The notes under the pieces were generated by a model. The model had not been told where the DNA came from. It saw nothing but the letters and a program-made list of their open reading frames with translations, and searched no databases. Both the position numbers and the translations under genes were made by a program. Below, in pieces: positions 720 through 33,700 of a stretch of DNA of 64,000 nt. The stretch is taken from assembly GCF_000143415.4 (NCBI RefSeq), contig NW_003314316.1:1010177-1074176 (forward strand), read 5' to 3'. This DNA is from Selaginella moellendorffii (lineage: Eukaryota; Plantae; Lycopodiophyta). Each line of letters starts with the position of its first letter. Position 1 is the first letter of the stretch.

Positions 720-1132
720 TTGAAGCCGAATGGAGGCCGTGACAATCAAGGCCAGACTCGCTGGCGAATGTGCACTGTGTGTGCAGCGGATCGTAGCAGC
801 AAGGCTACTCTGCCACTTACAGTTGGAGAGTGGCGCTGAAATCTCCCGGGATGCCAAGTGGGCTGCGTGTGGGTGGCGGAGTGGGCGGCGGAGTTGGCGG
901 CAAAGTTACAAACTGAAGTGGACGCCGATGCACACGAGTGCGATGCGAGCGCGAGTGTGATGCAAGCGCGAGTGGACGCCAATGCACACGAGAAACCTGT
1001 AGAGAAGGTAGATGAGCGCGAATGTGAGCGTGATCGCGAGTGGGAGCGCGATGCGAGCGCGAGTACGATGCAAAACCTAACCTCACACGCGCGAAATGTC
1101 ACGACGGTTGGTAATCCCGCCACGTCATCATT

Positions 1133-6569: not shown

Positions 6570-8103
6570 TGGCATGTGGCCTTACGCCATTCCTAGGTGA
6601 GATGATACAAATAACAAGTATAAATTCTTAGTTGTTCTAGCAAATCTTACTTAAAGTTCAAGGTGAACAAGCCGAATATGAATTCATCGGATTGTTATAA
6701 CAAATTGCGAGGTGATGGCATGAGGTGATACGCCATTTGAGAGTGGTAGCCATTCCTATATGAGGTGAGTGAAATATTTATTAGAAATACCTCATTCAAT
6801 TGTGCACTTCTAAGTCTTGGTCCACTCAGTACTGTTTGCATGTTTTTATTTTAATTCTTTCTCTAAAATGTTATTTAGCATGTGGCTTCATGCCATTGCT
6901 CTCCACAATCATGCATTGAATTTTTCTATCCTTGCATAATACTTCTCCATATATATAGCATGTGCGCACATGTGATATGGTTTATTAGGCCTGATATAGT
7001 GTGTGAGGTAAAACAAAGATGATGTGACATATGTATTTACCAATCACAGGTGCATAAATCTAATAATATGGCGTGTGGCCCATATTAATGGCACATAAAC
7101 CCATATTGTGGGCTTACGTGCTTTATGTACCATCATTCCCTTGCAGCGTGTGTGTTGGTTTCCTTTTATAACACAACGAACTCCATATTTTAGGGTGAAG
7201 AGCGTTCTCATGGCAAGCACAAAATCTGTAAGTGAGGCAGAAAAGGAGACGGAGAAGGAGATAGGTGAAGATGTAGAATATATAAGTCTTCCAAACTCCC
7301 CATACTATACTCCAGGTGATCATTTTTCTGAACAAACGGCAACATTAACAACTATCGAAAACGCCCCAGTAACGTCAGAGACAACAATCCAAAGCAAAAC
7401 AACTGACCCGGAGAAGAATGATAGTACCGCTGAGAGTACCAAAAAGGAGGTGTCCACTAGCGCTTAGGCTTATAATAGCGTGTGCCCTCATGCCATTTAC
7501 TTGATCACCAAATACCTTTTTCCCTTTGCACTAGTATATCTTAATACCGGTCTGAGAAATAGAATGGCATTTGCCCTCAGGCCTTTTACTAAATCACCTT
7601 TGAAAGAAATGCAAGCCTCTATGTCGTAAAAAAAAGGTACTAGAGAAATTCCTTAATAATATGAATGTTATTTAGTTTCATGAAAATACACTAAGGGTCA
7701 AATGAGTTAAATGACTTCTCCAGACTAGCAATGCCTCTTGCTACACCTTCACAATTAGATTCGTTAGAAAAAGATAACATTGAATAATATCTAAATGTTC
7801 TCACCATTAAGTTATATGTCTGGCTAATAGGAATGACGTTCATCTTGGAAAGCTCACCACACGCTCAATGAACAAACAAATAGTGTGTGCACGCATGCCA
7901 TCGCTCTTCTTTAGCTTCAGATTCGGCTTGTTCACCTTGACAATGAGATTTATTATACAACCAGATGGACTCAGTCTGGACACAAAGTCACCGTGCTAGT
8001 CACCATGCCCTAGATATGTCTAGCCCCTGGACAAAAAACATATAATTTCACGTCATTTTCAAATACTTGAAAATTTGTACCTAGTCCCATTTTACTGAAT
8101 AAA

Positions 8104-8127
8104 TCCCACTTTAACGAAATAGAGCTT
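8104..8127. repeat. Right terminal inverted repeat (24 bp), copy 1
   Basis: Identical to 29884-29907, and similarity between the copies ends here. Confidence 0.9.
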
Positions 8128-11100
8128 TTTTCTTCTTGGAGAGATGATTTGCAACAAGGTGTGACTCATTGCTCGTGTTCACATTATGCAATCAAGAGTT
8201 CCTACCTTGATGCATATTGGAAATGATAGTCTTACAAATGGTGAGTTATGGGATGTATAGCGGTGAAGCACTAAACCATTTTGTCTAGACTTGCTATTGG
8301 AAGACTCGGGTTACAATGCTCAATTTTTTTTCGAGGAACCTTGCTATTGCTCCTTGAGTAGCTTAGTGTTGGATTAGTGTTGAGTTTAGTCGGGTAGAGA
8401 GTGGCACGAGCTTGTCCATGTTGTGAACAAAAGTTAATGGTGTTCACTGTTATAAATCTCTATCGGTGGAGTGTGGCATTTATGTTGCATTTTGTCGAGT
8501 CGAGTTAACACTTGATACTCACATAAACCTTTGAAGTAATGGCATGGGCATTGCTCTTGGTGTTGCTCAATTAATGATCAGGTCATTGTGATACTTATAT
8601 CATATCCATGTGATAATGAGCAATGTGTTTACGAAGTTGCTTGGTTAAACGATGATCAACCCCAAAGTGGTTGATGGTGAAGCTAGTCTACTTGCATGTA
8701 GTAGCATTGTAGTAGCTTCGACTGAGTTCTCAATGGTGACTCATTATGCTAAGCTTGAGTTAGTTCCTTAGTTCCTTGAGTTTGCCTATAAGGTGTTGGA
8801 AAAATGGTTGTAGCATTCACTTACTATAGTTTATCAGTTGATCTGTTAGCACTTGGAGTAGATTGTTGGATAGAGAAAGTGTGTAGTTGAGGCATTGACA
8901 TCGCTAACACTTGTGTTAGTGGAAGTGGCATTGTTATTTTGAGTGATGAGGAATTTTCCTTAGAGCTTGATTTTTCATGTCATTTTTCTTGTTAGTGTTT
9001 TGGCTTCACATTGGATCTTGAAGGTGATTGAAGAAAAGTGTTAGTGCAATGTGGATATTCGAAGTTGTGGTCTTCGTGATCAAGCCTTGGATGTTCATTT
9101 TTCATTTTGCGGATGTCAGTGTTGGATATCGGAAAAATAGGCAAAAGATGTTCGATACTTAAGCATATTGATGGATCATGAGAATTTGTGTTGAGGTGAA
9201 TCTATGTGAAGTAGTAGGTAGGAAGAAGTTGGTTGAGTCTTGAAAGTTTGTATTCCTGGACTTAGAGTTATTCTTTCTCTAGGATGGAAAACTTTTCACA
9301 AATTTTCTTAGAATTTTCCAATGGCTGATTTGTTGATCATTTTGCTCAAAAACCATTCCGTTTTCGTAAGCTAGTACAAACTAGTGGAAAGGTTGGAGTT
9401 GACTTCGGTTGGCTTAGACCTTAGTAAGTATTTTGTATGATGCGACCCGAAAGGGATGCTAACTTTTGAGGCTAAGGCAATTGAGTTGGATAGAGTCTAG
9501 AATTGGTGTAGAAAAGTGGCCGTTGCGCTTTTCTAAGAAGGGTGACCCTTGTGCTTTTCTTTTGTAGCGTTATGCTTGGTGGCAGGTTGCACCTTGCATT
9601 TCGTTAGACTCTATGAGAGTAGTGAACTCTCACTGATCTTGACTTAGTCTTGGTGGCCCTACACCTTGGCTGAGGATAGTGATGTCCAACTTAGTTTTTT
9701 GCAGTTAAGGTGTTGGTACCCATACTATAGCTTTGTCTAAGTGGAGGTTGTGTACCAATATGAATTTATCTCATAGTCTTCACTTTAGTTTCAACTGGGT
9801 GTTGATCATGTATAGCTAGCCTCTTCAAGGCATGCTCAGAGGTACTAGCTAAATGCATTGGTGAGTTTATCGCAGTTGAGTTGGATTCGAGTGGTCATTA
9901 AGAAGTCAAGACCAAAAGTTCCAAAGTGCAATGGCTAAAAGGTGAAAGCCCAAAGCGTTTGTCTCCCAAACCCTTAGGGGTTTGGTGAGCTCCAAAAGTA
10001 TAGTAAAGGGGAGGACTCCAGTGGAGCCAGTTTGGCTAGGAAAGGCCAGTTTGGCCCAGGACGGGTATACTTAGGTGTTGGGTGATGGGATAACCACTGG
10101 GAAGTCCAAGGCTAGAGTGAATACGGACCGACAAATGAAGTAACTTGGTGAAGTATTCAAGAGCATCCTCTAGTTCCCCTGGGAGATCGAATGGTCGATG
10201 CTCCCAGTCCAAGTGTGGGTGGCACTACCTACTTGGATACCTGGCGTGGCTCAACGGAACCTCACTCTAAACCCATGGGTAGAGCACCAAAAGGCGGAAG
10301 ATGGGGAGAGTACCCATGAGGCTTGCGTAAGGCCACAGTGTTCCGAAATGTTGTCCCACAGTCTCAAACTGTGAAAAAAAAGAGGAGCAATCCTCTAGTG
10401 CAGTGACCAAGGATATGGTCACATGGTGAGGAAGTCCCATAGGATAGTGGGACTTAGAAGTCGGGCCTGTGGGCCTTGATCTAGTGGCAGTGTTGGCAAA
10501 CACAGCTATGGACAGAAAGGGACTTGGTGGGGAGAGGGAAAAGAGATATTGGGGAAGGCTATTCCTCATGTCTGTGGGCATCCTAAGGATGCTAAGGAGT
10601 GGATCTGGGATGATCACTCATGGATGGATGGCCTAGTCTTTGAGAGACGAGACTGCGATGCAGGTGGTGTTGGACCACCAGTGTAACCAAGGTAAATGGG
10701 CATGGCCTTAACGTAACAGGCTGAGAGGTCGGTGGTACCTTGGGATGTTAATCATGGGATCAGACACGTGGAGCACTTGGACCAAGTGCAAAGGTTGAGT
10801 GGCATAGATGTCATTCTCGGGGCTAGCAAACCCCAAGTCTTAAATGGGACTTATGGAGGTTGTGAATGAGACTCCTCCAAGTGGTCAAAGGTGTGGTTAA
10901 GTGACTAAAGTAGAATGGAAAAATTAATCGCTTACATTATTCCAATGGTTCCGTGTGTTGTTCCATGTACCGTAGGTGAAAGTAAACTTTCCCTGGGTTT
11001 GCAATGAGTGGCAAATAGGCTGGTCCATAGCTATTTAGCACGGCACTAGTGGATCCTTCCTAGGCATGATTATAAGTGTATCAATCAAGACTATAGGGAT

Positions 11101-16328: not shown

Positions 16329-16415
16329 AGTGGTCGAATGAGTCTCTAAGTTGGAGAGACTATGCTCCTTAGAGGATGGGCAAGGCATGGTGAGCCTTCA
16401 GTATCAAACCATTGA

Positions 16416-16439
16416 AAGCTCTATTTCGTTAAAGTGGGA
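16416..16439. repeat. Left terminal inverted repeat (24 bp)
   Basis: Perfect reverse complement of 29884-29907 and 8104-8127. Confidence 0.93.
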
Positions 16440-16857
16440 ATTGTCATTATCCCACTTGTAAAATAAGGTTTCCAAACCTTTATATAGTATATAAATATAA
16501 CAAAATTCAACTGCATTGAGGCACATGCCATTTTATTTAAAACAAGGAAATGTCTACTCAATCACTTCTCCTCCCCCTGCCACTGCTTCACCTTTCTCTT
16601 CTCCTTGTCATCGTCATCCAATTTCTTTCCATCCTTTTAATATTGGCTCAGTTGCTGCGAGTCTAGGTGGAGCCCAAGTCCCCATTCAATCTTTACTTTC
16701 CCCTTATTAATAAAACAACTTCGTAGACTTCCAATAACATGCTGTAACACTTCTAGTATAATGCAAATCCTCTCAAAGAATTGTCTTTTAATATTAATAC
16801 AATGGCATGGAACCCCATGCCATAATAAGTTACATTTTTAAATAAATACATGCCATC

Positions 16858-19800
16858 TCAGACTGTTATTTTTTGCCTCCAACGCCTATACAATAATCTT
16901 GGAATTTCATCACTCTCCACACTATCAGGATTTAAACCCAATAGTAATGCCATCTCTTCTCTAATACGTCCATGCTCATGTTCAGTGGTCGAAGAACCCA
17001 TCCGGTTGAGCAGATTATGGAGATGCGGATAGTGTTTGGCTAGACAATATACATGCCATAAATGATGACTGGTGTCTGTCCGATCAAATGGCTTCTGATA
17101 TACCGTTCCATCTGCCATTTGGTTGATTTCTGCAGCCACCTCCTGGACTGGCCGGTTCTCTATCACCATCGCTCCAAGCCGTTTTGCAAGGTCCCCCAGA
17201 ACATACGGTTTCTTCTCCTTAGTTTCCATACTGCAAGAGATGGGGTGCACTGCATATGTGTGCGTGTTCGCTGCAGTTTTAATCGGCGAGTCATCGATGA
17301 TGAGGATTTCACTTGACCTAGCAGTCCGGTTCATCACTACAGCCTCTGGCTTGACGAAGATGGGCTTGCTACCCCTCACATGGACCATAGTCAAGCAATC
17401 CTCCTGCGTTAGGAGAAAGTCAAATGGTAATATTACTTGCGTCTGATCATGCATCATCTGTAGCAACGTTAATGCATTGTGGCGCATCATGGATGTCCAA
17501 ACTCCCAATTGCAAATTGAACTTGGCCCTCTGTTTTAAGTGTAGCATGGTCATTATTAGATCCCGCAGTTTCTCCCATGTGATTAATGTGAATTTGTCTC
17601 TTTTGACAAACTTGCGACCGCAGGCTTTGGAGGGTGCAGTGACATTCGAGGACGAACCACGCTCATGGGAGAAAAGGACACCATTTAGATCAAAAACGAT
17701 ACAGTACCTTCGCTGTGACTCTGAAATGAAATGCGTCATCATAAAACATGGTACAAGTCAATTTTACCATCTACAATATTAGCGAATGGTGCTCCCGATG
17801 GTCGTTGAGAGGGTTTTGGTCGAGGAAACGTGAAGGGTGGAAATACTCTCCTCTGCAATATGGGGTCAATCGCATCCGATGGCGTGTGGGCACATGCCAT
17901 TTCAGCTGTAGACTCTGGTACAACTGGCTCAACAGTGGCATGGGGTGGTTCCGATGGCGTGTGATCACACGCCATTTCAACTGGTGCCTTCGTTGGCAAA
18001 GTGGACATGACCGAACAGGCAGCAGGGGCGGTGTAGGGAGGTTCCAACGGCGCGTAGTCAGACGATTGGGCACACGTTGAGTCCGTTGGAAATGAGGATA
18101 TGACCGGCTCGGCGGCTGGGGCGGCCTCATGTGGGTCCAATGGCACCTGGTCACCGTCAGTTGGATACGTGGACAAGATTGACTCAGTGGTATAGGCAGC
18201 ATCAAGTGGAGCGTGGTCAGCTTGCTTGGCGTTGATATGGATAGTAGCCTCCACCAGCTCTGATGACTCTTGCAGGCAAGTAGAGTCCACTGGCGGATCC
18301 ATATGCATGTCCAAATATCTCCCTTCGATTGAGATGGTATCCTCCCTACTGGCTACTAAAAACAAACTCATTAGCACATTGAATCGACTATACTATATTT
18401 ACCATCAACTGCTATTGAGGAAATAGGACCGATATCACTTGGGCGCACTGCTGATTCTGAAGGATTGGACATACGTTTCGACCCTTGCTTGGCACTATCC
18501 TTCCTCGACACTAAAGGCTAGAGTTTGTATCTTAATTCAACTGAATAATCTCTACTTACCATTTGCTCTGCGACCTACATGGACAATGTTAGAAATGGTA
18601 AAAGGTTAGGAATGGATGTACTATTATTTACCTAATGGTTTGTCTTGTATGACCTTCCTCCCCTGCTCTTTGGCCACCTCAGGCTGGCCATCGTCGTCAT
18701 CATCGTCGTCGTCGTTATTGTGATCATCACCATTGTGAGGACCATCCAAGTCCTCTTCGTCCTCCTCTTCTTTGTCCTCCTCTTCGTCCTTCTGCTCTTC
18801 CTGCTCATTATCTTTCTCTGGCTCCTCATCCCCCTCCTGCATTTCTTCCATAGGCTGCTCACTTGGGAAAATCATCTGGCCGAGTCTCCATCTCAAAATA
18901 CAAGACATCCATAGCCTGTTTTAGTGCGTGACCTAGGACCGTATCCTCACCCGACTGTCTTAACATGGTTTCTGCACGTTCTTGCACCCTTCGAAGACGA
19001 CGAGATGAGAAAAACGTGGCCCTGACTTGAAAAGCATCCCTCATCCATTGTACCTCTCCATTGAGATTAGGGAAGGGGAGTCCGCCATAGGAATCTGAGT
19101 CAGGAGGTGGTGACTGGCTGCTTTCACTCAGCCCTTGATCTGCAATGAATGGCATGAGCACACACGCCATAACCGCGAGGCATTACCTATCATATTTTCG
19201 TTGCCCTTCTTCCTTTTCGAATCAAACGCCTCTGATCCCGACGACTGTCCAACGTGCTTTCGCTTTTTATAACCACTGTCAGTTTGAGCTTGGCTGGTGC
19301 TTGCCTGTTTTGCCTTTGAAGAAGTGTCTCCTGCAAGGAATGGCATGAGACCACACGCCATTGCAAATATAATTTGTACCTCCTTTTTTCCTATTGCTTG
19401 TCTGTTTGTCCTTCTTCGACGCGCCACCAGTGCGCTTTTCAGTCCTCGTGTCTGAATATTCACAACGATCTATAATCAAAATGGCGTGAGGCCTCACGTG
19501 ACCTTACCTTGTGCAGGTTGTGAGCTCGGCCCAACATGGGTATCTTCAACAGTAGCTGTTAACGCCGTTTCAGCATCTGGGGGTGGCCACGCTCCTGCAT
19601 ACAGAGCTTGTGAGATAACATTTAAACTTAAAGTGCGTACTCACCAAGTTCGCAGAGAAGATACTGTTTTTCTTTGGCAACTGTAATTATATGCTCCATT
19701 GAAGTCACCTCTTCAATGGAGTTTGTCACCGCAACACACGGGACACCCTTGAGTAGTGCGGCTTGAAAGAATAGTCCGCCGCAGTTGTACTCGACAACGC

Positions 19801-22443
19801 ATTTGCTCTTAGAGTCGGAAGCAAGTGACCCACCCGCTATTGCGTTGAAGACCCAGCTGAGCATTTCCCATGCTGCACTTGGAGCTTTTTCTGGATTCGA
19901 AAGCTCCATAGCCGTCTTCAGTTCCTCAGGCACGGGTAAATTGACCTCCCTCAGATCAATTCGATCGGCCTTGTCGAACGAAGCTGGGAAGTCACTCCAG
20001 TCCCACTCTACTGCAGGACCAATAACAAGGGTGAGTGTGAAGATGCGGACATTTGTCGGTATCTTCTTCTTAGCCATTATCCCATGGATCTCCCGCATCT
20101 CCTTGCCTTTCAACCGAGCCTTCACCTCGTTCAAGGCCTTCCAGAACTTGTGATAGGATTCAGAGTCATAGATCATATAGTGGACTAAAGATTTCACCTC
20201 CGCAAGTCCCACCATTAAGTCAATGATGGAGCTGACTTCGTCTGCATGAGTGATCTCCTCGTTTGTGAAGTCCATCACACAAAAGATGTTCTTGACCTGC
20301 TCATCTCCGCGGGAAACGATGCTCCTCCACCTTTGATCCTCATCCGAATTCACGTATACCCGGTAAGGTTCTCGATAGGCCTCTGCTGCGGGGTCAAGCT
20401 GTTTCTGAAGCCGGCGGTCGACATCCCTCTTAATGAAATTTGGATACTGATCCAACTTCTCAGCTTTACTTTTCGTGGCATCCCGCAGCAGATCGATGAA
20501 CTTGGGGGCCCCCTTCATGTACTCGTCGATGTCTTCATTTGACAACTCCAACTCTTCCATCATCTCTTGCGTGGTGTCGATGCTCACCCTCTCCACAGCC
20601 ACTTGCTCGAAGATCCAATCCTTCAATAGCGCACGAGCTCTCAGAGTCGTGCACAAGTCCTCGTATGTCACAATATGGCCGGGAGTCATTTTGGTCTTGT
20701 TGAAGACTACCTCACCACGTAGAAGAGCATTAGCCACTGTCAGAAGGTCGTCGTCGTCTAGAGACCGCGAGAAATGCAAGGCGTTGAGCTTCAAATCATT
20801 GGGCTTCCGGCCGTCCTCCACACCCATTGAGTTTAGCAACTCCCCGTCATGGTACCTCCTCAGCACATCTACCCATTTGTCAAAAACAACTTTTGTCGCG
20901 AGTAGAATGTTATGGATGCTGAGTGTGTCATTGACCCCCAATGTTTTCGAGAGAAGACTCGAGAATTCCTGCAATGGAAATGGCGTGAGGCCACATGCTA
21001 TGCCACATGCAACGAGGCTTACCTGCCAGGCGCTAGTTGCTAATGCACGTCCTTGTCCTGGTTTTTGTGGCTTCTTCAGTTGAACCCAGAGCTTCCGTGT
21101 TCGTGCCAATGTCTCATGCAGACCCGATTTGTAGCACGTTTCTTGCTTGACATTCTGCGCGTGGGAGATGTATATGATAGATCGGAGGGGCGAATTGCCT
21201 TTTATCAGGCGGACAACTCTTGTCTTGAAGACTTTCTTCACCTCCTCGCCCACTATAATATCCACAACTATCTCTTGCATCGCCAAGCTAGAATGCTGCC
21301 CGGAGACGGCATAGAACCGGATGTTCTGATCGTCCAACACCTTCCTATTGATCAAGTCTGGAAACCTCGTCTCGCCCTTCATTGTTCGGTAGTAGGGGAT
21401 CACGTCTGCGATGTCAGGTGTTACTGGACTTGCCAGCATCTTCTGCTTCAGTTTCTCCACCCACTCATCAGATACTAGCCTGTGGTTGTATTTGCTTTGG
21501 ATGTCGATACGGCTCACGTCGATTGTATATACTTTGTTGGAATAGTAACAAGTACTATTATCTACGACGATTTTTGCTGCCTCTTCTTGCTCTTTCTGCT
21601 CTTTGCGGCTCTTCTTTTTGGTGGGTGTAGTGTTCGAACCCGAGGCAATGGCATCACCGAGTAGCTTCTTTTTTGGAGCAGGAGAGTCGGACGTCGGCTT
21701 GAGCTTGACCACCCTTTTCTGCTTCGGGGTAGTTTCCAGATCGACCCCCTTCCCCTTAGCTTCGCGAACTGGAGGCATTCTCAACGGCTCAATGTTGGAA
21801 TATAGTTTTTGAACATCGCCGTAGGTGAGGTCCGTGGATTCCATGTGATCTTCATAGACCCGCAGCGTCTTTGAAATTGTGGGCCTCCTAGACAACCTCT
21901 CCCTAGCTCCCTCTAGGAATTCCTCATAGCCGCTGCCCCCCTCCGGGAAGCCGCTAGGATGTGCAAGGTGGATCTTGAAGGCGGACGCTGTCTCTACCAC
22001 AAGTGCCAGTCCATATTCTTGCATGGAACTGCATGGAGTGTCTGTCACTTGGATGAGGATCCCCATGCATTCTTTTCTCCCACCATCTGTGTTGTATAGC
22101 CTCAGATCCTCGCCTTCCATCCCGAAAGTCCAACTGATGAGCTCCTCCCCCTTCTTTGCATCCACATTGACAGTGGCTGGAAGAAGAACGCAATTCCTCG
22201 CCTGTTCAGAAATGCACAACAATTAGAGCTGACAGATGAAAAGCTAGCAGCTGGAAATAACGTGAGGCCACACGCCATTCACCACTGCATCAGATGTCTT
22301 GAGGCTGCATCCTAAGATGGCGTGAGGCTACACGCCATCTGTAACCGGACTGCACTCAAGAGCCCAATCGGTGCATGCCAATGTTGCTACTGAATGGCAT
22401 GTGGCCTCATGCCATTTTCTACTTGGCCTAAAAGACTTACCAT
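16858..22443 (-). CDS. Transposon accessory gene, 11 predicted exons, ~1630 aa: ParB/Srx-like + degenerate amino-MTase-like + low-complexity/acidic + FCP1/HAD phosphatase-like domain; one apparent 1-bp frameshift near 18865
   Basis: Predicted exons: 22443-22441, 22201-21023, 20968-19645, 19594-19508, 19451-19380, 19330-19187, 19139-18632, 18574-18560, 18510-18403, 18355-17768, 17720-16858. All introns are GT-AG, 47-57 nt except the first (239 nt). Phases are consistent except the 508-nt exon (+1 nt). Motifs: IDVSRIDI..NHRLVSDEWVEKLK..FYAVSGQHS; IVFDLNGVLF..VWTSM..ILIIDDSPIK. Confidence 0.72.
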
Positions 22444-22856
22444 TTGAAGCCGAATGGAGGCCGTGACAATCAAGGCCAGACTCGCTGGCGAATGTGCACT
22501 GTGTGTGTAGCGGATCGTAGCAGCAAGGCTACTCTGCCACTTACAGTTGGAGAGTGGCACTGAAATCTCTCGGGACGCCAAGTGGGCTGTGTGTGGGTGG
22601 TGGAGTGGGCGGCGGAGTTGGCGGCGAAGTTATAAACTGAAGTGGACGCCGATGCACACGAGCGTGATGCGAGCGCGAGTGTGATGCAAGTGCGAGTGGA
22701 CGCCAATGCACACGAGAAACCTGTAGAGAAGGTAGATGAGCGCGAATGTGAGTGTGATCGCGAGTGGGAGCGCGATGTGAGCGCGAGTACGATGCAAAAC
22801 CTAACCTCACACGCGTGAAATCTCATGACGGTTGGTAATCCCACCACGTCATCATT

Positions 22857-23529
22857 TGTAGCGCACCTTATCTCTCTCCCCTTAAGCCAACTGGAAAAGG
22901 GGCAATTGCTTGATGAGAGAGCCCTTAGTGGCTATTTTATCCCCATTTATCCCCCAAGGTTCCAAGGATCCACGGTGACAATATATCCAAATCTCATCCC
23001 ATGATCACATGCGCTACACTCACCCCCCCTTCAGAGATGTCAATGTCCTCATTGACTATTGACTAACAACCCCTACTGAGCCAAGGGGAACCAGCACCTC
23101 CATTTCCGCACTCAATCTACCAATCCTTCCATTGTGTAGACCAGCTATTCCATGTGAGGCAACTAGTCATCCACCCGTACCGCAGTCCCACGATGGATAC
23201 CTTTGTCCGTGGATACTCCACACAAGAGGAAGGACGTACGCATGGATGTCCACTACATACGATTTCAAATTTAGGGGTAGGAATATACCTTGCTCAAGGG
23301 TATATTATATTTTAGGTAGCCACTAATCAATGGGAATCGAACCCGTGCCATTTGCTCTGATACCAACTGTAGCGCACCTTATCTCTCTCCCCTTAAGCCA
23401 ACTGGAAAAGGGGCAATTGCTTGATGAGAGAGCCCTTAGTGGCTATTTTATCCCCATTTATCCCCCAAGGTTCCAAGGATCCACGGTGACAGTATATCCA
23501 AATCTCATCCCATGATCACATGCGCTACA
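22857..23529 (-). mobile_element. TRIM nested at the same site in copy 2
   Basis: LTRs 22857-23018 and 23368-23529, TSD TCATT, same PBS and PPT. Confidence 0.92.
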
Positions 23530-24136
23530 TCATTCCTCGGACTTGGGCGCCACCATTAATTTCTGGATCGCCACGCGCATGCATGCACGTGAAATCCAAA
23601 AGAAATCCGCAACGTCATCATTCCTCGGACTGCATGCACGCGAAATCCAAAAGAAAGATCATGATTGGGATATCATTTAATACCCTCGCTATATTTATAC
23701 CATGCATGATTGGATATTCCAAAGCATCTTGTATTTCCAAAAATGCCAGATGTTCAACTAAATAAAGAATGGTATACAATGTCCTTCTTGATGACCCTGC
23801 AAAGAAGCATCTGGATCGAACACCACATGAGACCACACGAGCCTTACAATGTTTCAGGGGCATTTGCCATAGATCCGACCGTTATTTTGCTCCAAGATTC
23901 TACAGTTTGGTGTGCATTGACCTTTCCATCGACACTGCAAAGGGACATCACAATCAGATGTGGGATCACAAGAAACCAACTTCACTAACTCTAGTTTCAC
24001 CAAGATCTACGTAAGGAGTTATGAAATGAAAGGACCCTCTCTATTGAAATGTGTTTATGGTCCTAGGGGCATTGTGACATATCAAAGGATTTTACATCAA
24101 GTTCTGTATTTGCATGTTTATCAAGCTACTGAATTG

Positions 24137-24156
24137 CTAAACCCTAAACCCTAAAC
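24137..24156. promoter_or_regulatory. Telo-box-like (CCCTAAA)n short repeat between the divergent transposon genes
   Basis: ctaaaccctaaaccctaaac, also at 2374-2393. Function not demonstrated. Confidence 0.35.
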
Positions 24157-25450
24157 ATGTGGCAAATGCTGCATGAAGAAAGATGCCCTTTCTGGGCAAA
24201 TGCTGTAAGAGGCAGATGCCGAGCAGATGTATCTCAGGCTAGTGAAGGGGACAAACGAAAGCTAGCTATAAACATGACGGGATGCAAATAGATTACTAGG
24301 CTGGTCCTGCGAAAATCAAAAACCATAATTGAAAACATTGAAAATGCAAAAAGAAAGGTTTATAATATTTTTGAATTTTAAGCAACCAAAGGAATGTAAG
24401 TAGGGCATGTGTTTGTAAGTTTAAAAATGCCTCAACCACTTAAATTCCCAAGTAAATAAAGCTGTTTCTATTTTTGGTACAGGTAAACTTTATAGCGTGT
24501 GGGCTCATGCAATTTTGAACCCAAAAATGCACCAAAAAATGCTCGACTAGCATTATTCTTTGAATGGCGTGTGGCCTTATATTGCCATAAATGGACATAC
24601 ACACACAGCATAATTATTCCTTTACACGGCGAATAATCTTGGCGCGGATCGCTGACATGGCATGGCAAAGTTCGAATCACTGACATGGCACAGCTGGATC
24701 GAAGCAAGGACATGATGTGATAAAGTTCAACCTCCGACAGCAAAATCTAGAAGCTACTCAGTTTGAAATTTGTCAGAGGAATCATAAGATCTGGTTTGTC
24801 AAAGGATTTGATGTGACGTTCAAGTGTGTGTTATTTTTGAATTCTCGAACTCATTCCTAGGTCTATCATTTTTGTGCGCCGTGTTCTTGGTTCCGCTGAG
24901 CGCAGTGAGCGCTGCTTGTGTAAGCGGCGTTGTGAGCTGTGGTTTATGCGTCTACGAGCGGTTGCGGCATTGCGAGCGCCATTGCGAGCGACAGTTTATG
25001 CGAGTGGCAGTTTGTGCGAGCGGTGCTACGAGCAGTTACGGTGTTGCGAGCGGCGCTACGAGTAGTTGCGGTGTTGCAAGCGGCACTGTCTTTGGTGTGG
25101 CTACCACTTCCTCTTGATATTCGGCACTTGTGCTTCCTGGTATGTTCACCATGGAATGGCTTAGGACCACATTTAGAAATGACATGAGGCCACATGCCAT
25201 CTTGGGCCCTTGCAATTTCATGGCTAGCGTATTGTCATGTATGTTTTTACTTGCCTACAGCTGTGTGTATATCAAGATGGCATGAGGCCTCATGCCAATT
25301 TTGTGAATGCGAAATTTCACGTGGGTGTCAATAGCATGTTTGAATAATGGCATGTGGCCTCATGCTATTGAGGTTGTTTGGTATGTTATGATTTAGGCCA
25401 TTCTCCAATCATTTTTTGTATGGTCTTAACTTCTTTTCTGCACTTTCAGA

Positions 25451-28349
25451 ATGGCCTCCGCAAGTGCGATGCATGTTCCCTCCGTGGATCTTAAGAACCG
25501 TGCTACATGGATTCAGGCAAAGGTGTTTCTAAACAACCCCAAGGGGGAGGTGGTAGCTGAGGGCTTAGCCACAGTTGTCGATCCAAGAGATGCGGTTGCT
25601 AATCAAGAATTGGGCTGGGATGATATTGGAGTTGCGATTTTAGAGGTTGTTGACACAAAAGAAAACAGTCTGACTATTGGAAGCATTGTGCGGTGGAAAT
25701 TGAGGCACTTAGTGTTTGAAAATGTGAAGGATTCACAATCAAACACCACTACAACTGATGACAGAACATCTCTTCATGGGAAAAGAAAGTACACCTTCCT
25801 AAAGCGCAGCCAAAGGGATCTAAGAAACGAACCGAAAAGGTAGAAAATGGCGATGGAGGTTCGAATGGTCTCGACAGTTCCTTGTTGCAAAAGGAGGTGC
25901 TGTCAACATGCTGATTGGGATGCTATTGAAGAGGAGAGAGCAAGATACAAGACATTGTCCTGGAAGGCAGCTCGCAATTTTGTGTATGAGGCATTACGGT
26001 CATCTGTTGATGCTTCAGAACATCAGGTGGGGGGCATGGTCTTCCAGAGGGGTTTGGTCTGCATGAAGGCATGGAGAATCATTTATGGAGTCCCTCGAAC
26101 CACATTCTACAGAATCAAAACTGAGTTCGAGGAACAAAGGGTTCAACAGGCAGTCCATGGGAACGACGGTACTCACAAAACCAGGGGTCATGTTGTATAT
26201 GGAGAGGCAATCTTCAAGAGGTTTGTCGAGACATGTAGCGAGCAGCAACCACATAAAACCCGCCTCTTGGAAGATGGAACTCGAGACACCCAACGAGTTC
26301 TCCCTTCCATGTATACCAAGGGGGCCATATTGGAAGATGTGAATCGGGAACTCCAGAGTAATGGCTACAGGAAGCTGAGCCAATCTAGATTTAGTAGATT
26401 GTGGAGCAACAGGTTCAGGGATGTGAGTATAGGAAAGTACTCCAGCTTTTCAAAGTGTGACGAGTGCACTGCTATGAAAATGGCTTTGTTGAAGAATTCT
26501 TGCATCGCTCAAGAGCGAGAGACGTTGGTTAGAAGGCGGCTCAACCACAACATCGAGCAAAGAAGCTGCAGGACTGCATATTATCATAACAGGATTCTCT
26601 CCATGGAGAGACCTGACTCTTACCTCTACATCATCCACGACAAAATGGACCAGAAAAAGACGTGCTTACCTCAACTCAATCCTACCCCCAAGGCAATCTC
26701 TTCATCCATGCAGCTGCCTGTGTCTCTGTTTGGCATAATCGCTCATGGGCATGGTGCCCAAAACTATGGGAACTTCTTTGTACCTCTATGGGGTGGCGGG
26801 GGTGCAAACATGATGATTGCATCTCTAGCAAAACACTTAAGGTCTCTTCAAAGTGCGTAGACTGAGCTGAACGGCCAACCCTTGCATAAGGCCCTTGTCG
26901 ATCAAACCCCATACAGGGTTCAGCTGGAGGAGGAGCAAAGGCTTGCAGTATCGCGTGGGGCCCCATGCCATCCCAGTGAATATGTTGGCCGTCAGATTGT
27001 AGGGTTATCACGTGAGGCCTCATGCCATTCCGACGAGGCTGGTCGCCCGGTGAATGCACAGCCTCATCCAAACGAAGCAGAATCTCAAGGAAGTTCTTGC
27101 GGCCGATGTGGCCTTCCACCCCATCTTCTGCTCCAAATAGACAATGCTGGCAGTGAGAACAAAAACATGTACGTCTTCGCGTACTTGGCGATGCTTGTTG
27201 CCAAAGGCATATTTGAAACGGTTACACTTGGCTTTCTCATGGTTGGGCACACTCATGAAGACGTCGATGCCATGTTCAGTCACCTGGCAGAGTCCCTCTG
27301 GCGATCCAATGTCCTCACCCTCCCACAACTCTACGATGAATTCCAAAATTGCATCAAAGGCACTGTTGAAGCTGCACTTGTGACAGAGGTTCCAGACTTT
27401 AAGGGGTTTGTAAGAGGCTACATCAGGGACGGATCCAAAACGCTGATTGGCCACTCCAAGCCTCTTCAGTTTCATTTCAGCATGCGTGACGGTGCTCCAG
27501 TGATGAGGTACAAGATGAGAGAATGGGACACAGTGTGGCTGCTAGTGGACGGCATTGAACTCTTCAAGAGAGATCCCATAACTGGGGAACCTATGATTCC
27601 TCAGGGTTCCCCACGGCCGATGCACCTGGATGGACTCAAAGACCAGGAAAGTATAGTGGCCGGGATTAGACAGCATATTGCCTTCTGGAAGAGGGGGTTG
27701 GTGTTTGGTGGAGAATCCTATTTTCAGAGGTGCAAGCCTTTGCTCGAATACTGGGAGAAGATTATATCTGCTATCCAAAATGGGCCGGTTGTATATGAAG
27801 AATTGGAAGAGTCCTTTTGGCCAGAACCCAGAGCACCAGATAGTAGCGGAACAATGTCCTCTGGAAATGCAGTGACAGATAACAATGTTGAGGATCACTA
27901 TTGTGGGCCGAGGAACAAGAAGCCGGATTCAGCATTCAATCCAGTACAGGTCTGCAAAGGACTGGTCGTGCTTGTCAGACCCAGTAATAGAAAACAAATG
28001 ATATGGGTGGGGCGCTGCATCACTTATGTAGAGGAGGACGCGGAAACTAACTCCTTCAATGTAACTGTGGAGTGGTTCAAGCCAAGTTCCGGATATACGA
28101 AGGATTGCCTAGAAAAGAGATGGGTGCTGAATCCAAGGGATCCCAACATGAGCATATCGGTGGATAATGTTGTGCATGGTTGGATGCGGAAGCAGAGTGC
28201 CACCATCACCTTGCCAGACCATGCAAGAGATGCAGCAAGAGCATTCATAACCCGGGTTCAAGGTGAGATTCATTAATATTCCTTTATTAAGTTTCTAATG
28301 TATTTTATTTCAAGGTGAACAATCCGAATCTGAATCAGAGGAGGCGTGA
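25451..28349 (+). pseudogene. Sola1/DUF7869-like DDD transposase (~948 aa reconstructed) with two in-frame TAG stops
   Basis: ORFs 25451-25843, 25847-26860 and 26882-28276 share one frame. Motifs: CCKRRC, CDEC, HDKMDQKKT, LLLQIDNAGSENKN, FLMVGHTHEDVDAMFS. TAG at 25841 (CAG in copy 1) and at 26858. A predicted last intron 28263-28314 is followed by exon GEQSESESEEA*. Confidence 0.82.
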
Positions 28350-28989
28350 TGGCATGTGGCCTTACACCATTCCTAGGTGAGATGATACAAATAACAAGTA
28401 TAAATTCTTAGTTGTTCTAGCAAATCTTACTTAAAGTTCAAGGTGAACAAGCCGAATATGAATTCATCAGATTGTTATAACAAATTGCGAGGTGATGGCA
28501 TGAGGCGATACGCCATTTGAGAGTGGTAGCCATTCCTATATGAGGTGAGTGAAATATTTATTAGAAATACCTCATTCAATTGTGCATTTCTAAGTCTTGG
28601 TCCACTCAGTACTGTTTGCATGTTTCTATTTTAATTTTTTCTCTAAAATGTTATTTAGCATGTGGCTTCATGCCATTGCTCTCCACAATCATGCATTGAA
28701 TTTTTCTATCCTTGCATAATACTTCTCCATATATATAGCATGTGCGCACATGTGATATGGTTCATTAGGCCTGATATAGTGTGTGAGGTAAAACAAAGAT
28801 GATGTGACATATGCATTTACCAATCACACATGCATAAATCTAATAATATGGCGTGTGGCCCATATTAATGGCACATAAACCCATATTGTGGGCTTATGTG
28901 CTTTATGTACCATCATTCCCTTGCAGCATGTGTGTTGGTTTCCTTTTATAACACAACGAACTCCATATTTTAGGGTGAAGAGCGTTCTC

Positions 28990-29247
28990 ATGGCAAGCAC
29001 AAAATCTGTAAGTGAGGCAGAAAAGGAGACGGAGAAGGAGATAGGTGAAGATGTAGAATATATAAGTCTTCCAAACTCCCCGTACTATACTCCAGGTGAT
29101 CATTTTTCTGAACAAACGGCAACATTAACAACTATTGAGAACGCCCCAGTAACGTCAGAGACAACAATCCAAAGCAAAACAACTGACCCGGAGAAGGATG
29201 ATAGTACCACTGAGAGTACCAAAAAGGAGGTGTCCACTAGCGCTTAG
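28990..29247 (+). CDS. Small acidic Ser/Thr-rich ORF (85 aa) near the right end of the transposon, function unknown
   Basis: MASTKSVSEAEKETEKE... is open in both copies (7210-7467 in copy 1) and preceded by a candidate ttttag acceptor. Confidence 0.3.
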   Translation: MASTKSVSEAEKETEKEIGEDVEYISLPNSPYYTPGDHFSEQTATLTTIENAPVTSETTIQSKTTDPEKDDSTTESTKKEVSTSA

Positions 29248-29883
29248 GCTTATAATGGCGTGTGCCCTCATGCCATTTACTTGATCACCAAATACCTTTT
29301 TCCCTTTGCACTAATATATTTTAATACCGGTCTGAGAAATAGAATGGCATGTGCCCTCAGGCCTTTTACTAAATCACCTTTGAAAGAAATGCAAGCCTCT
29401 ATGTCGTAAAAAAAAGGTACTAGAGAAATTCCTTAATAATATGAATGTTATTTAGTTTCATGAAAATACACTAAGGGTCAAATGAGTTAAATGACTTCTC
29501 CAAACTAGCAATGCCTCTTGCTACACCTTCACAATTAGATTCGTTAGAAAAAGATAACATTGAATAATATCTAAATGTTCTCACCATTAAGTTATATGTC
29601 TGGCTAATAGGAATGACGTTCATCTTGGAAAGCTCACCACACGCTCAATGAACAAACAAATAGTGTGTGCGCGCATGCCATCGCTCTTCTTTAGCTTCAG
29701 ATTCGGCTTGTTCACCTTGACAATGAGATTTATTATACAACCAGATGGACTCAGTCTGGACACAAAGTCACCACGCTAGTCACCATGCCCCAGATATGTC
29801 TAGCCCCTGGACAAAAAACATATAATTTCACGTCATTTTCAAATACTTGAAAATTTGTACCTAGTCCCATTTTACTGAATAAA

Positions 29884-29907
29884 TCCCACTTTAACGAAAT
29901 AGAGCTT
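29884..29907. repeat. Right terminal inverted repeat (24 bp), copy 2
   Basis: TCCCACTTTAACGAAATAGAGCTT followed by TSD TTGA. Confidence 0.93.
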
Positions 29908-30254
29908 TTGACGAATATTGGCAAGGGACCAAGGATGGAAAGGGTAATACAAATTGGTACTACTTTATAAAATAGTTTATCATTCGATGAGGACATCGAA
30001 CTTCGTCTATGGGTGGTGAAGTTGTGAGACATAAAATTCCTAGGCCCCAAAGTGGAGCCGGAAGGGTGCCACGTGGTAGTGGCCAAAGAGAAAACCAAAC
30101 GAGCGTAACATGTTTGGACTAAAAGCTCCTACTTGAAGGGTCGAGAGCGGGAGTGAAACTCCCGACGAAGTGCTCAAGGAACAAGCACGGAGCAAGCAAT
30201 AAGTGAGTCTCGAGAAAAGGGACACAAAAGGACCAACACATGACATGTGGAAGT

Positions 30255-30715
30255 GTCCGAGATGGACCCAAGATGGAGTCCGAGATGGAGTCCGAGATGG
30301 AGTCCGACATGGAGTCCGAGATGGAGTCCGAGATGGAGTCTGAGATGGACCCGAGATGAAGTCCGAGATGGATCCGAGATGGAGTCCGAGATAGACCCGA
30401 GATGGAGTCCGAGATGGAGTTCGAGATGGACCTGAGATGAAGTCCGAGATGGAGTCCGAGATGGACCCGAGATGGAGTCCGAGATGGAGTCTGAGATGGA
30501 CCCGAAATGGAATCCGAGATGGAGTCTGAGAAGGACCCGAGATGGAGTCCGAGACCGGGACCGAGACCGAGACCAAGACTGAGACCGAGATCGAGACCGA
30601 GGCCGAGGCCAAGACCGAGCCTGAGCCCAAGTTCGAGTCCGAGTCCGAGTCTGAGTCCGAGTCCGAGTCCGAGTCCGAACTCGAGTCCGAACTCGAGTCC
30701 GAGTTCAAGTCTGAG
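30255..30715. repeat. Hexamer/12-mer minisatellite: (GAGATGGAGTCC)n grading into (GAGACC)n and (GAGTCC)n
   Basis: Visible periodicity, which produces low-complexity ORFs in several frames. Confidence 0.9.
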
Positions 30716-33700
30716 AAGGTGAAAGCCCAAAGCGTTTGTCTCCCAGACCCTAGGGGGTTTGGTGAGCTCCAAAAGTATAGTGAGGGGGAGGACTGCAGTG
30801 GAGCCAGTTTGGCCAGGAAAGGCTAGTTTGGCCAGGAAAGGCCAGTTTGGCCAGGAAAGGCCAGTTTGGCCCAGGAAGGCTGTACCCAGTGTTGGGTGAT
30901 GAGCTGCCCACTGGGAAGTCCAAGACTAGAGTGAATATGGACCGACAAGCGGAGTATCTTGGTGAAGTGTTCAAGAGCCAGCTCTAGTTCCCCCGGGAGA
31001 TCGACTGGCCGATGCTCCTAGTCCAAGTGTGGGTGGCACTACCTACTTGGATACCTGGCATGGCTCAATGGAACCTCGCTCTAAGCCCATGGCTAGAGCA
31101 TCTAAAGGCAGAAGGCGGGGAGAGTACCCATGAGGCCCGCGTAGGGCCACGGTGTTCCGAAATGTTGTCCCAAAGTCCCAGACTGTGGAAGGAAGAGGAA
31201 TAACCCTTTGGTGTGGTAACCAAGGACATAGTCGCACGGTGAGGCAGTCCCAAAGGCCAGTGGACTTAGCGGTCAAGCCTGTGGGCCTTGATCTAGTGGC
31301 AATATTGACGAACACGGCCATGGACAGAAAGGGACTGGGTGGGGACCGGAAAAGAGATATTAAGGAAGGCTATTCCCCATGTCTGCGGGCATCCTAAGGA
31401 TGCTAAGGAGTGGATCTAGGATGATCACTCATGGACGGATGACCCAGTCTTTGAGAGACGGGATTGTAAAGCAGGTGGTGTTGGACCACCAGTATGACCA
31501 AGGTAAATGGGCATGGCCTTAACGTAACAGGCTGATACGTCGGTGGTACCTTGGGGTGTCGATCATGGGATCGGACCCGTGGAGCACTTGGACCAAGTGC
31601 TAAGGTTGAGTGGCATGTATGCCATTCTCAGGGCTATCAAACCCCAAGTCTTGAATTGGACTCATGGAGGTCGTGAAAAAGACTCCTCCAAGTGGTCAGA
31701 GATGTGGTTAAGTGACTAAAGTAGAATGGAAAAATTAGTCGCTTACAGCAGCCTGAAAGGGATGTTGACTTTTGAGGCTAAGGCAATTGAGTTGGATAGA
31801 GTCTGGAATTGGTGTAGAAAAGTGGTTGTTGCACTTTTCTAAAAAGGTGACCCTTATGCCTTTCTTTTAACGTTGTGCTTGGTGGCAAGTTGCACATTGC
31901 ATTTCGTTAAGACTCTATGAGAGTAGTGAGCTCTCACTGATCTTGACTTAGTCTTGGTAGCCCTGTGCTTTGGCTGAGGATAGTGATGTTCAACTTAGTT
32001 GTTTGAGGTTGAGATGTTGGTACCTGTACTATAGCTTTGTCTATGAGGAGGTTGTGTACTGACATGAGTCCATCTCATGGTCTTCACTTTAGTTTCGACT
32101 GAGTGTTGATCATGCATAGCTAGCCCCTTCAAAGCATGCTCAGAGCTGTTAGCTAAATACATTGGTGAGTTTATCGCGATTGAGTTGGATTCGAGTGGTC
32201 ATTTAGTTCATGTTTGTCTATGAACCTATATCTTATGCCTGGGGTATTACGTTCATGTTAGACATGTATATGACTCGATGACATTAGTTTAGTGTTGGGT
32301 CTTGTGAAGGCAAGTTGAAGAGTGATTATTAGTTGCTTTGTGACTAGTGATTACTTGTAAACTTTGCTAAGGACTGTTGACACTTGCTTCACTCAATGAT
32401 GATTTAGCAGTGATAGGCTTGCTTTTTCGGATGGTGTTGTGGAGGATTATGTCATTAGACTTACACGGGTTTTCCATGTTGGCATATCGACTCTACCTTT
32501 ATCGATATCTTTTGGTTGCATTTAGTCCGTAGTGTTGGATTTCATGTAGTCTTGGATATGGAGAATCACTCCTTTATTATTGAAGAATTAGTCTCAAATA
32601 CTGAGTAAAATATCTTCAACTTTGGTTAGCTTGGTTGCTAAAGAGTTTTTGAGTGGTGATTCACTCTTGCTTTCTTCTAACTTATTATGGTGTTGATGGC
32701 ATTGAAGTGATGCCTTATCGTTGATATTGTTGATGTTGAGATTCAAGTGAAATGAGATGTCTCTCCGTAGGATTGATATTGAATTTTATTAGTGTTTGAT
32801 GAATATAGTGTTGATGATTTGGCTATTGCTTTGTGTTATTGACATTTGTGCATTCGCTAGTTAGCAACTGTATTGACGTTCAATGAACTGAATGACAAGT
32901 TTAAACTTAGTTGTGATTTGGACGAGAATGTTTAGTAGGGGTTAAGCTTTGGCTTTTCCTTGAAAAGTGATTTAGTCGTAAATGACGCTAACTCTACTAG
33001 AAGAAGAGTTAATGATTGATATTGGAATGTTTGAATCCTTATTGGTTTTGAGTTGGAATATATCAATCATTGATGATTTTTCTTGTGCTTGTTATAAAGT
33101 GAGTTATGCCTTGCTATAAATGGATTCATGGAGGATCGTTTGGTGATCACTTGTTGAGCATAGCTTCATTGTGCTTAGCTTTTGGATTGATACAGTTCAT
33201 TAGTTTTGATATTATGAAGTTTTGCTTATGGATGTGTTAAGAAAAATATTATGGGTTGTACCATGATTTCTTCTTTAATATTGAAATTAGTTCATGCGAG
33301 ACTTGTGATCATTATTAGGCAAGACTTGGCTATAGGCTTTTTTGAGTTTTTGGTTCCTTGAGTTTTCATGCTCAATGTTCCATTTGTTAGAAGTTGTTGG
33401 GAAGGCATTTTGGCTCATAACTTCAATGATTGAAGTTAGTAGTTGCATCTAGCAATCATTGGTAATGATTAACTGTCATCTAGGATAATTGAATATCCTT
33501 ATCAAAAGTTTTGCTTGATTATTATTGATATGAAATGATTTGCCATTCTTCGGGATGGTGGATTTCTTCTTCAATGATGATTATGCATCTCTTTTTTGAT
33601 GGGATGATTGATGATCTTTCATGATGGTTAATTATGTTATTTGATGGCTTATGGCTTTTTGCATTACCACATGTTCTTTGTGATTTGCTTTGGATTGGTC

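Follow-up and report, generated by a model that had tools for sequence, protein, structure and literature searches.

A 22-bp palindrome dispersed along a Selaginella DNA transposon is a candidate binding site for the element's predicted ParB-like accessory protein

Known transposons with ParB-like or family-specific binding proteins

The closest described layouts, as given in the accessible parts of their sources, come from algae. In the giant DNA transposon Sola1-1_Ec32 of Ectocarpus, an accessory gene that runs opposite to the transposase encodes ParB-like and N4C/N6A methyltransferase domains, and the authors propose self-binding and self-modification (PMC12477816). Red-algal Plavaka (EnSpm) elements encode PAG3, a ParB-like accessory protein for which inverted repeats are proposed as binding sites, and elements with PAG3/PAG2 also carry a PF01555 methylase (bioRxiv 10.1101/2025.02.11.637652). 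In Arabidopsis, VANC is encoded by VANDAL elements and binds family-specific motifs in introns, between genes and in non-coding DNA at the termini (PMC5735166).

Here we describe a transposon in a 64-kb stretch of the Selaginella moellendorffii genome (64,000 nucleotides, hereafter the window) that carries 25 copies of a 22-bp palindrome. Like Sola1-1_Ec32 it is a giant transposon with an accessory gene opposite the transposase and with ParB-like and methylase-type parts. It differs in belonging to a land plant, in having a methylase part that lacks catalytic motif IV and is followed by an FCP1-like domain, and in its 25 mapped dyads, some of which lie in mini-introns; the likeness is drawn from the descriptions. 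The accessible part of the Sola1-1_Ec32 description makes no mention of a palindrome (PMC12477816). The PAG3/PAG2 elements, as far as their source is available, likewise combine a ParB-like accessory protein, inverted repeats and a PF01555-type part, but their repeats form tandem arrays adjoining PAG3 whereas the sites here are dispersed across the element, and their effector is a 2OG-oxygenase, with the methylase a separate gene, whereas the present element has a DUF7869 transposase. VANC shares with our locus an element-encoded protein and family-specific motifs in non-coding DNA, binding here being predicted. Its motifs, in contrast, are 8–9-bp, non-palindromic and tandemly repeated, demethylation is shown for VANC where here anti-silencing is suggested by likeness, and the available part of its description reports no ParB fold (PMC5735166). 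By language-model features the nearest clusters are the DUF3723 auxiliary genes of fungal Starships (Atlas score 0.97), which also reside on giant transposons in the accessible accounts; the accessory protein, however, has no Pfam match to DUF3723, and the element class differs.

Compared in this way by description, the window combines a large DNA transposon, which carries a gene for a ParB-like accessory protein, with inverted repeats specific to the element. Algal transposons with this layout have been described before, so that the element is likely to be a land-plant variant of it and not a new kind; none of the literature matches listed describes such an element in land plants. In the accessible algal literature the ParB-like accessory genes are known and their targets proposed, whereas here there is a precise 22-bp candidate site. 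On balance we lean towards the palindrome being a family-specific self-tag that is bound by the transposon's own accessory protein, the predicted binder.

A decayed DNA transposon with a DUF7869 transposase

The transposon spans 13,492 bp (16416–29907) and is a decayed copy of a multi-copy family. It is bounded by 27-bp terminal inverted repeats (TIRs; left 16416–16442, +; right 29881–29907, −) and flanked by the target-site duplication (TSD) TTGA (16412–16415 and 29908–29911). Contigs of sequencing run X1 contain the empty-site joint (16411 to 29908, with a 4-base ambiguity), which together with the TIRs and TSD identifies a TIR DNA transposon. Sola1 and Sola2 elements make 4-bp TSDs. We take the element to be Sola-like from motif likeness, its sequence match being only to DUF7869. 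Judged by its letters the TIR is unrelated to the palindrome, the best ungapped match between the left TIR and the dyad being 7 bases.

The transposase gene (25451–28276, +) matches PF25273 (E = 5e-40) and its product is 33–42% identical to proteins P0001–P0015. This copy has two stops where the family majority reads C, and 244 bp of the family form are missing at 25457. A nested TRIM with 162-bp LTRs (22850–23528) is present in both window copies of the family and is skipped in contigs of runs X1, X5 and X19. The second copy (1–8128, +) is partial, being left-truncated by the window start, and is 97.7% identical to 21725–29909. A short unexplained ORF (about 28990–29247) is flanked by palindrome sites of the right arm.

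A 22-bp palindrome with a conserved centre

A symmetric position weight matrix (PWM) built from 21 seed sites, and so trained on the same sites that it scores, identifies 25 palindromes between 16510 and 29681 at a score of at least 8. This is far above the simulated null (mean 0.45, maximum 4 in 40 order-2 Markov simulations), and 23 of the sites reach at least 16, where the null is 0. A first-pass annotation of the window had estimated about 25 copies along the whole element, and both the number and the spread agree with our scan: 22 of the 25 sites lie more than 500 bp from an element end, and only three within 500 bp.

Selection on the arms alone yields 24 sites at a spacer of 6, against 0–2 at spacers 2–5 and 7–10; a further 12 matches at spacer 11 are, on our reading, an artefact of the ATG repeated within the arm. 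The fixed spacing claimed in that annotation for the arms ATGGCRTG and CAYGCCAT is thus upheld, but both 8-bp arms are exact in only 8 of the 25 sites. The 22-mer in its originally written form has no exact occurrence, the best copies having one mismatch, and the central 6 bp, thought to vary, are instead conserved as WGGCCW (G in 43 of 48 at position 10 and 33 of 48 at position 11; arm-selected sites, both strands). C5 is kept in 44 of 46 half-sites, while position 6 is A or G. The dinucleotide counts (CA 26, CG 17, TG 2 and CC 1; n = 46) rule out CpG decay as the only cause of this A/G position, and an asymmetry between W9 and W14 was rejected (14 versus 6, p = 0.12).

Mirrored positions 6 and 17 read A–T in 7 sites, G–T in 7, G–C in 4, A–C in 4 and otherwise in 1 (n = 23; Fisher p = 1). 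The arms therefore show no covariation, as is more in keeping with binding of double-stranded DNA than with a hairpin, and fixed-spacing dyads of this kind fit the dimeric DNA-binding protein that had been postulated.

The PWM scan finds 17 sites in the second family copy, none in the nested TRIM and none in the remaining 42,379 bp of the window, as the first-pass annotation had noted for full-length copies. Confinement to the family therefore holds within the 64-kb window, but runs X1 (12 and 10 contigs) and X5 (1 contig) show site 25277 joined to different flanks. The exact degenerate motif is absent from the viral contigs and prokaryote genomes searched, and the best PWM score in 80 related loci is 10.1. 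Occurrence with other flanks in this species' DNA is what might be seen if a host transcription factor or chromatin protein bound the dyads and the element had gathered them for its expression, and the clustering of sites in first introns and between divergent genes points the same way. We nevertheless consider a host factor quite improbable, given the empty 42,379 bp outside the family and the unrelated dyads of related elements. For a host factor, moreover, a 22-bp dyad constrained at nearly all positions is long.

Between the two window copies the sites differ at the background rate (8/374 versus 120/7,074), consistent with the sites being neutral relics of local duplication. Such decay is expected anyway in dead copies, however, and for most sites the flanking sequences show no relation to one another. 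The sites keep out of conserved coding sequence (see below), and across 25100–27400 the only family-majority difference within a site (25182) restores the consensus. These observations make neutral relics extremely improbable.

A predicted accessory protein with a ParB/Srx fold

On the strand opposite the transposase (−) we predict a single spliced accessory gene encoding a ParB-N domain, a helical region, a degenerate N4C/N6A-methyltransferase-like part, an acidic and Pro-rich linker and an FCP1-like phosphatase domain. AlphaFold2 models the ParB region (21023–21586, −) with a pLDDT of 77.6 from an 11-row alignment, compared with 32 for a single-sequence fold. Foldseek places Noc, ParB and PadC in its top rows for this model (best Noc 7ol9, E = 1.2e-4), and VIA returns PadC (Z 9.0, rmsd 3.1, 100 aligned) and KorB (Z 8.3), so that the N-terminal part of the protein is predicted to adopt a ParB/Srx fold. 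Sequence searches of Pfam, PHROGs, NCBIfam and the PDB give no ParB match for the protein, a word-indexed protein search with the ParB ORF returns nothing and a profile search returns one known protein; no viral relatives of the ParB profile were found. A helix-turn-helix of the ParB type was sought with a five-row profile of the conserved region after the ParB domain, which matches no ParB chain in the PDB.

Bacterial ParB, Noc and KorB, which act with parS and NBS sites, resemble this system in their ParB/Srx N-terminal fold (predicted here) and multiple dyad sites, and the bacterial ParB arginine patch is given as GERRxRA in the accessible part of the source (PMC7333895). In our protein, by contrast, SGQHS replaces the patch (as it does in 9 of 10 homologues, the tenth having DGQHT), there is no ParA partner, the site is 22 bp and extra C-terminal domains follow. 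A parS site is 16 bp. Since the arginine patch is missing, a CTP-loaded sliding clamp formed by the accessory protein is doubtful. For the ParB-like protein, one of the two candidate binders named at first pass, the predicted fold is in favour and the helical-region profile counts against it.

The ParB domain is followed by an exon (19645–20968, −) for the helical region and then a degenerate beta-class amino-methyltransferase-like part, with a motif I-like sequence near 19790 and no DPPY/SPPY. This part aligns with Selaginella XP_024528744.1 (P0086) at motif I (E = 0.02), the SAM-binding motif that beta-class enzymes have at the C-terminal end of the domain, of which the window has a divergent equivalent and for which P0086 has an Atlas lead of 0.84. 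The Riccia homologue P0096 matches PF01555 with E = 5.8e-4 (20.3 bits, under the Pfam cut-off of 26.7) and M.RsrI with E = 0.18. Catalytic motif IV of beta-class methyltransferases is (D/N/S)PP(Y/F/W); at the place picked out by eye, MDFTN stands in the window, and PPY is missing from the homologues as well. The predicted last exon (16858–17720, −; splice chain predicted) encodes a NIF/FCP1-like HAD phosphatase domain matching PF03031 (E = 2.6e-5, 24.4 bits versus a cut-off of 21.8), with the motif DLNGVL. FCP1/SCP phosphatases have the catalytic motif DxDx(T/V), where this copy reads DLNGV. Both catalytic motifs, methylase and phosphatase, look degenerate.

In P0096 a single chain unites, in the same order, a ParB part that is homologous (tblastn E = 3e-12), PF01555 and PF03031, although its NIF domain and that of the window give no pairwise alignment (best E = 0.64). 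No algal names occur among the 10 homologue clusters looked up.

Sites lie in introns and other non-coding DNA

Three sites (22257, 22317 and 22394) fall in the predicted first intron of the accessory gene (22202–22440, −), right after the ATG (22443–22441). Site 20980 lies in a 54-nt intron (20969–21022, −) that is confirmed by protein homology: P0086 shows a gap of exactly 18 aa there, and for the Calypogeia protein P0079 splicing improves the alignment (181 versus 159). Further mini-introns (all −) are predicted at 19595–19644 (50 nt, no palindrome, CTCAC at the same branch distance), 19470–19507 (38 nt, site 19481; 56 nt with the alternative acceptor, 19452–19507), 19331–19379 (49 nt, site 19340) and 19140–19186 (47 nt, site 19149). 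Four more without a palindrome (18575–18631, 18511–18559, 18356–18402 and 17721–17767, −) belong to one of 374 frame-keeping chains. The predicted Pro-rich linker exon (17768–18355, −) contains two coding sites, 17879 and 17954. A splice-signal score without the motif term ranks the five upstream introns within the top 6 of 153 candidates; no sequencing run found to contain the element is registered as RNA, and contigs of X19 and X20, two runs guessed to be RNA that may be DNA, have no splice joints and bear on splicing neither way.

Beyond the predicted stop of the accessory gene, sites 16510 (weak) and 16802 occupy the left end (16510–16823). Sites 24492 and 24564 (weak) lie between the two divergent genes (24492–24585), and seven (28349, 28495, 28655, 28735, 29255, 29344 and 29660) are in the right non-coding arm (28349–29681). 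Upstream of the transposase ATG are sites 25179, 25277 and 25347 (25179–25368), which a 5' intron with donor candidate 25140 and acceptor 25449 likely contains. The remaining two, 26950 and 27007 (26950–27028), are in frame in an insert of the transposase core that is poorly conserved; an intron covering them was rejected, as the insert is about equally long in homologues and the reading frame stays open in the family.

On the predicted gene model, 21 of the 25 sites are non-coding, compared with 38% of bases (p = 2.6e-6), and 7 of the 9 accessory-gene sites are in introns that make up 677 of its 5,586 bp. The dyads thus avoid conserved coding sequence on that model, and their gathering in introns and non-coding DNA, as in VANC-bound regions, bears out the VANC-like precedent drawn at first pass.

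Four of the nine predicted mini-introns contain a site. In these 38–56-nt introns the acceptor lies 9–11 nt downstream of the site, and the right arm (CTCAY) reads like a branch site. Such a position would suit RNA or single-strand hairpins that aid tiny-intron splicing, or footprints of a small introner-like insertion, and two such introns outdo most of their shuffles in folding (z −2.5 and −1.7). The homology-confirmed 54-nt intron, in contrast, has z +0.45, and homologues from other plants share its position, so that the intron is older than its site. Five of the nine mini-introns have no site, 21 of the 25 sites lie elsewhere, the arms lack covariation and there is no Rfam match. We reject the RNA hairpin on covariation, folding z-scores and Rfam, and consider the hairpin and introner explanations together very improbable.

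A possible self-recognition mechanism

If the palindrome is a self-tag, a dimer of the accessory protein would bind the dyad as double-stranded DNA. Given the lost CTP-binding arginine patch, ParB-style loading and sliding is unlikely, and many dispersed sites may take the place of spreading. The protein would thereby cover its own family's copies and fix the state of their chromatin or transcription, with anti-silencing or autoregulation, VANC-like in logic, as the expected outcome. Sites would be kept wherever they are cost-free: in UTRs and long introns, in variable linkers, and in tiny introns, in which the CTCAY arm could double as the branch site.

More tentatively, early-diverging land plants may possess a ParB/parS-like code for transposon self-recognition, in which each family has its own palindrome hidden in introns, even as a branch site, and the ParB–methylase-fold–FCP1 fusion brings a polymerase-II phosphatase-like domain to the family's own DNA and controls silencing. 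Such a code, if real, would be, independently of VANC and TnpA, a further anti-silencing system, and the domain fusion, on the predicted splicing, points to transcription control. Recognition and protection of a transposon's own copies become testable with one binding assay, and if binding holds, the system could supply orthogonal protein–site pairs for plants.

Related loci and the transposase as an alternative binder

Among the 10 closest loci only 3 singly exceed shuffles in dyad counts, and 3 control regions score 3 each, which makes counts of 3–4 weak. Some related elements carry their own, different palindromes: the dyads of L004 and L001/L002 are unlike that of the window and offer a natural specificity series, and there are also named land-plant homologues. 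Of the 10 closest loci, 2 contain a 15-bp core of the right TIR, with one mismatch in L004 and two in L007 (null mean 0.09, maximum 1 in 100 shuffles). As L004 shares this core and has a different dyad, the end motif seems to evolve separately from the dyad.

The ParB-like profile has no match in 80 related loci, 12 of them longer than 10 kb. Two of these, L014 (10 kb) with 11 dyads and L050 with 5, have dyad families and no detectable ParB gene. These loci, the presence of a site in only four of the nine mini-introns, the weak counts of 3–4, the degenerate look of the catalytic motifs, which blurs the effector step, and the lack of alignment between the two NIF domains count against the accessory-protein self-tag.

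L014 and L050 also favour the transposase as the binder, with the dyads predicted to be extra sites that help bring a long element's ends together or help switch on its own copies. A 2026 preprint, in its accessible part, describes a transposase that alone binds and activates cognate copies. There, however, binding is at TIRs or termini, far from where most sites lie here, and our dyad resembles neither the TIR nor the dyad of L004, which shares the TIR core. We regard transposase binding as unlikely, though a serious contender. Dyad type follows the transposase clades, the four TCAAA-type loci forming a 100/99 clade, as would fit a transposase binder; 90 of 500 shuffles do likewise, and this tracking is compatible with either protein.

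A palindrome repeated along the element

The DUF7869 (Sola-like) transposon at 16416–29907 is bounded by 27-bp TIRs and a TTGA duplication, and run X1 contains an empty insertion site with a 4-base overlap. Its 22-bp palindrome is a real feature. A symmetric PWM identifies 25 sites at 16510–29681 (null mean 0.45, maximum 4, 40 simulations), in line with the roughly 25 copies of the first-pass annotation, and only 3 lie within 500 bp of an element end, bearing out the description of copies spread along the element. The consensus is ATGGCRTG-WGGCCW-CAYGCCAT. The annotation had described conserved arms at fixed spacing around a variable centre. The 6-bp spacer holds for 24 sites chosen by their arms alone, but both arms are exact in only 8 of 25 sites, the 22-mer as then written has no exact copy, and the supposedly variable centre, WGGCCW, is conserved as well.

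A PWM scan found no site in the nested TRIM or in the other 42,379 bp of the window, as had been claimed, and a second, partial element copy at 1–8128 carries 17. Confinement to the element thus stands inside the window, but one site (25277–25298) is joined to different flanks in X1 and X5 contigs, which makes it probable that a further repeat of the same genome carries the motif. At these loose ends the site lies beside a second site-like end and different flanks, which may point to an additional repeat in which dyads are closely spaced. Small deletions in X1 DNA contigs, at 19112–19172 and 19432–19495, end at or within palindrome sites.

Sites lie mainly in non-coding sequence

Non-coding sequence holds 21 of the 25 sites (p = 2.6e-6, a value that depends on the predicted gene model); the four coding sites fall in a Pro-rich linker and a poorly conserved transposase insert. 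Within the accessory gene 7 of 9 sites are intronic, and 4 of 9 predicted mini-introns hold a site. All four site-bearing mini-introns carry the right arm as CTCAY on the sense strand, 16–18 nt before the intron end, which we take to fit the branch-site consensus. In the palindrome-free 50-nt intron, CTCAC stands 17 nt from the end, suggesting that the dyad right arm likely doubles as the branch site of mini-introns. Mirrored dyad positions show no covariation and mini-intron folding is inconsistent from intron to intron, which argues for a dyad read as double-stranded DNA rather than as a hairpin. The sixth position (position 6) is A or G with C5 retained, a pattern that does not amount to simple CpG decay. 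One idea is that the putative binder might treat T and 5-methyl-C alike at this position.

The minus-strand accessory frame is predicted to span 1,035 aa once a 239-nt first intron and five GT–AG introns (54, 50, 38, 49 and 47 nt) are removed, and retention of any intron of non-multiple-of-three length truncates it. Frame alone is weak evidence for this chain, because 5,602 chains keep one. A splice score that contains no motif term, constructed by hand once these introns had been seen, places all five among the best 6 of 153 candidates. It puts the chosen chain second of 5,602, behind one that differs only in using a 56-nt version of the 38-nt intron. The 54-nt intron coincides with a gap of exactly 18 residues in the Selaginella homologue XP_024528744.1 (P0086, RefSeq), several homologues begin or end close to its junction, and by sequence comparison it is independently confirmed. 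Four more minus-strand mini-introns, predicted, palindrome-free and one of 374 chains, would connect an acidic and Pro-rich stretch to the NIF/FCP1-like domain. In the copy at 16416–29907, a 29-bp deletion at 18861 puts the two halves of the gene out of frame with each other.

The accessory protein as candidate binder

Named homologues come from Selaginella, Calypogeia and Riccia; together with the tiny introns, a plant-type telomere motif and the primer site of a TRIM, they suggest that the host is probably a non-seed land plant. In the Riccia protein (P0096), a single chain combines the ParB part with PF03031 and a weak methylase match (PF01555); the NIF domain of P0096 gave no pairwise alignment with that of the window. 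Modelled together with 10 homologues (pLDDT 77.6), the N-terminal domain resembles Noc, ParB, PadC and KorB in structure comparison. According to PMC7333895, the GERRxRA arginine patch of ParB binds CTP; this position reads SGQHS in the window protein and 9 of 10 homologues. The catalytic motifs of the methylase-like and phosphatase-like parts appear degenerate. In a search for a ParB-type HTH, a 5-row profile of the region after the ParB domain matched no ParB chain in the PDB.

On balance we lean towards a mechanism in which the accessory protein would bind the dyads as a dimer and so mark copies of its own family, whose silencing or transcription would then be regulated; the many dispersed sites would take the place of sliding. 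The main rival, that the transposase itself binds the dyads, seems to us less likely. Transposases can activate cognate copies according to the accessible part of a preprint, but those transposases bind at termini.

Some related loci carry dyads of their own

Among the best 80 of 192 metagenome matches, taken as relatives, the window motif reaches a PWM score of at most 10.1 in any locus. L004 bears 12 sites, set in unrelated flanks, of a different dyad centred on GGCCATATGGCC. A GCTCAAAC-type dyad is common to L001 and L002 and also occurs twice in each of L005 and L006, and L050 and L014 have other dyads again. The PWMs for these dyads were trained on the very sites they score; unaided, 3 of the 10 closest of these 80 loci exceed shuffles, and controls reached 3. 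The TIR core recurs in 2 of the 10 closest (L004 and L007; null mean 0.09) and in 0 of the other 70. An 11-sequence profile detected no ParB-like gene in the 80 loci. The contigs of the close loci are not long enough to extend to such a gene. At 10 kb, L014, which has its own dyads, is long enough, and this counts for the transposase as binder.

A 16-bp palindrome, GGTGTTTATWAACACC, lies at L001:4429, L003:4029, L004:5170, L007:2128 and L010:3620 and 3664, and is absent from the window at up to 2 mismatches. The five carriers span different transposase clades, and in L001, L003 and L004 it is 3' of the transposase match. L043 and L044 are compact 2.8-kb DUF7869 elements with 120–130-bp TIRs, too small for an accessory gene.

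Comparison with known systems

The general layout is already known from algal elements, for which self-binding has been proposed. Ectocarpus Sola1-1_Ec32 has an opposite-strand gene encoding ParB and an N4C/N6A-methylase (PMC12477816), red-algal PAG3 adjoins inverted-repeat arrays (bioRxiv 10.1101/2025.02.11.637652) and VANC is a functional precedent (PMC5735166). Compared with what these papers describe, the window element differs in several respects: a likely land-plant host, a predicted FCP1-like tail on the accessory protein, degenerate catalytic motifs, dyads partly in predicted mini-introns, and separation of dyad and end motif.

Other features of the element and its surroundings

The plus-strand transposase is 33–42% identical to 15 homologues. 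The copy at 16416–29907 has decayed, as its two transposase stops read T where the family majority has C. The TRIM (22850–23528; ~1126–1805) is common to both window copies and skipped in X1, X5 and X19 contigs, which indicates that a TRIM-bearing subfamily kept transposing. A short acidic, Thr-rich plus-strand ORF at 28990–29247, downstream of a plausible acceptor at ~28972, had no match in Pfam and is possibly a third gene. A separate motif recurs as inverted pairs in the right arm of the element (28310–28371, 28438–28462 and 29659–29720). The flanking repeat hosting the element contains a tandem array of 11–12-bp units at 30200–30730. Further along, 39700–64000 contains a Copia-type pol ORF (45632–49417) as well as repeated segments that form a long array with three N gaps.
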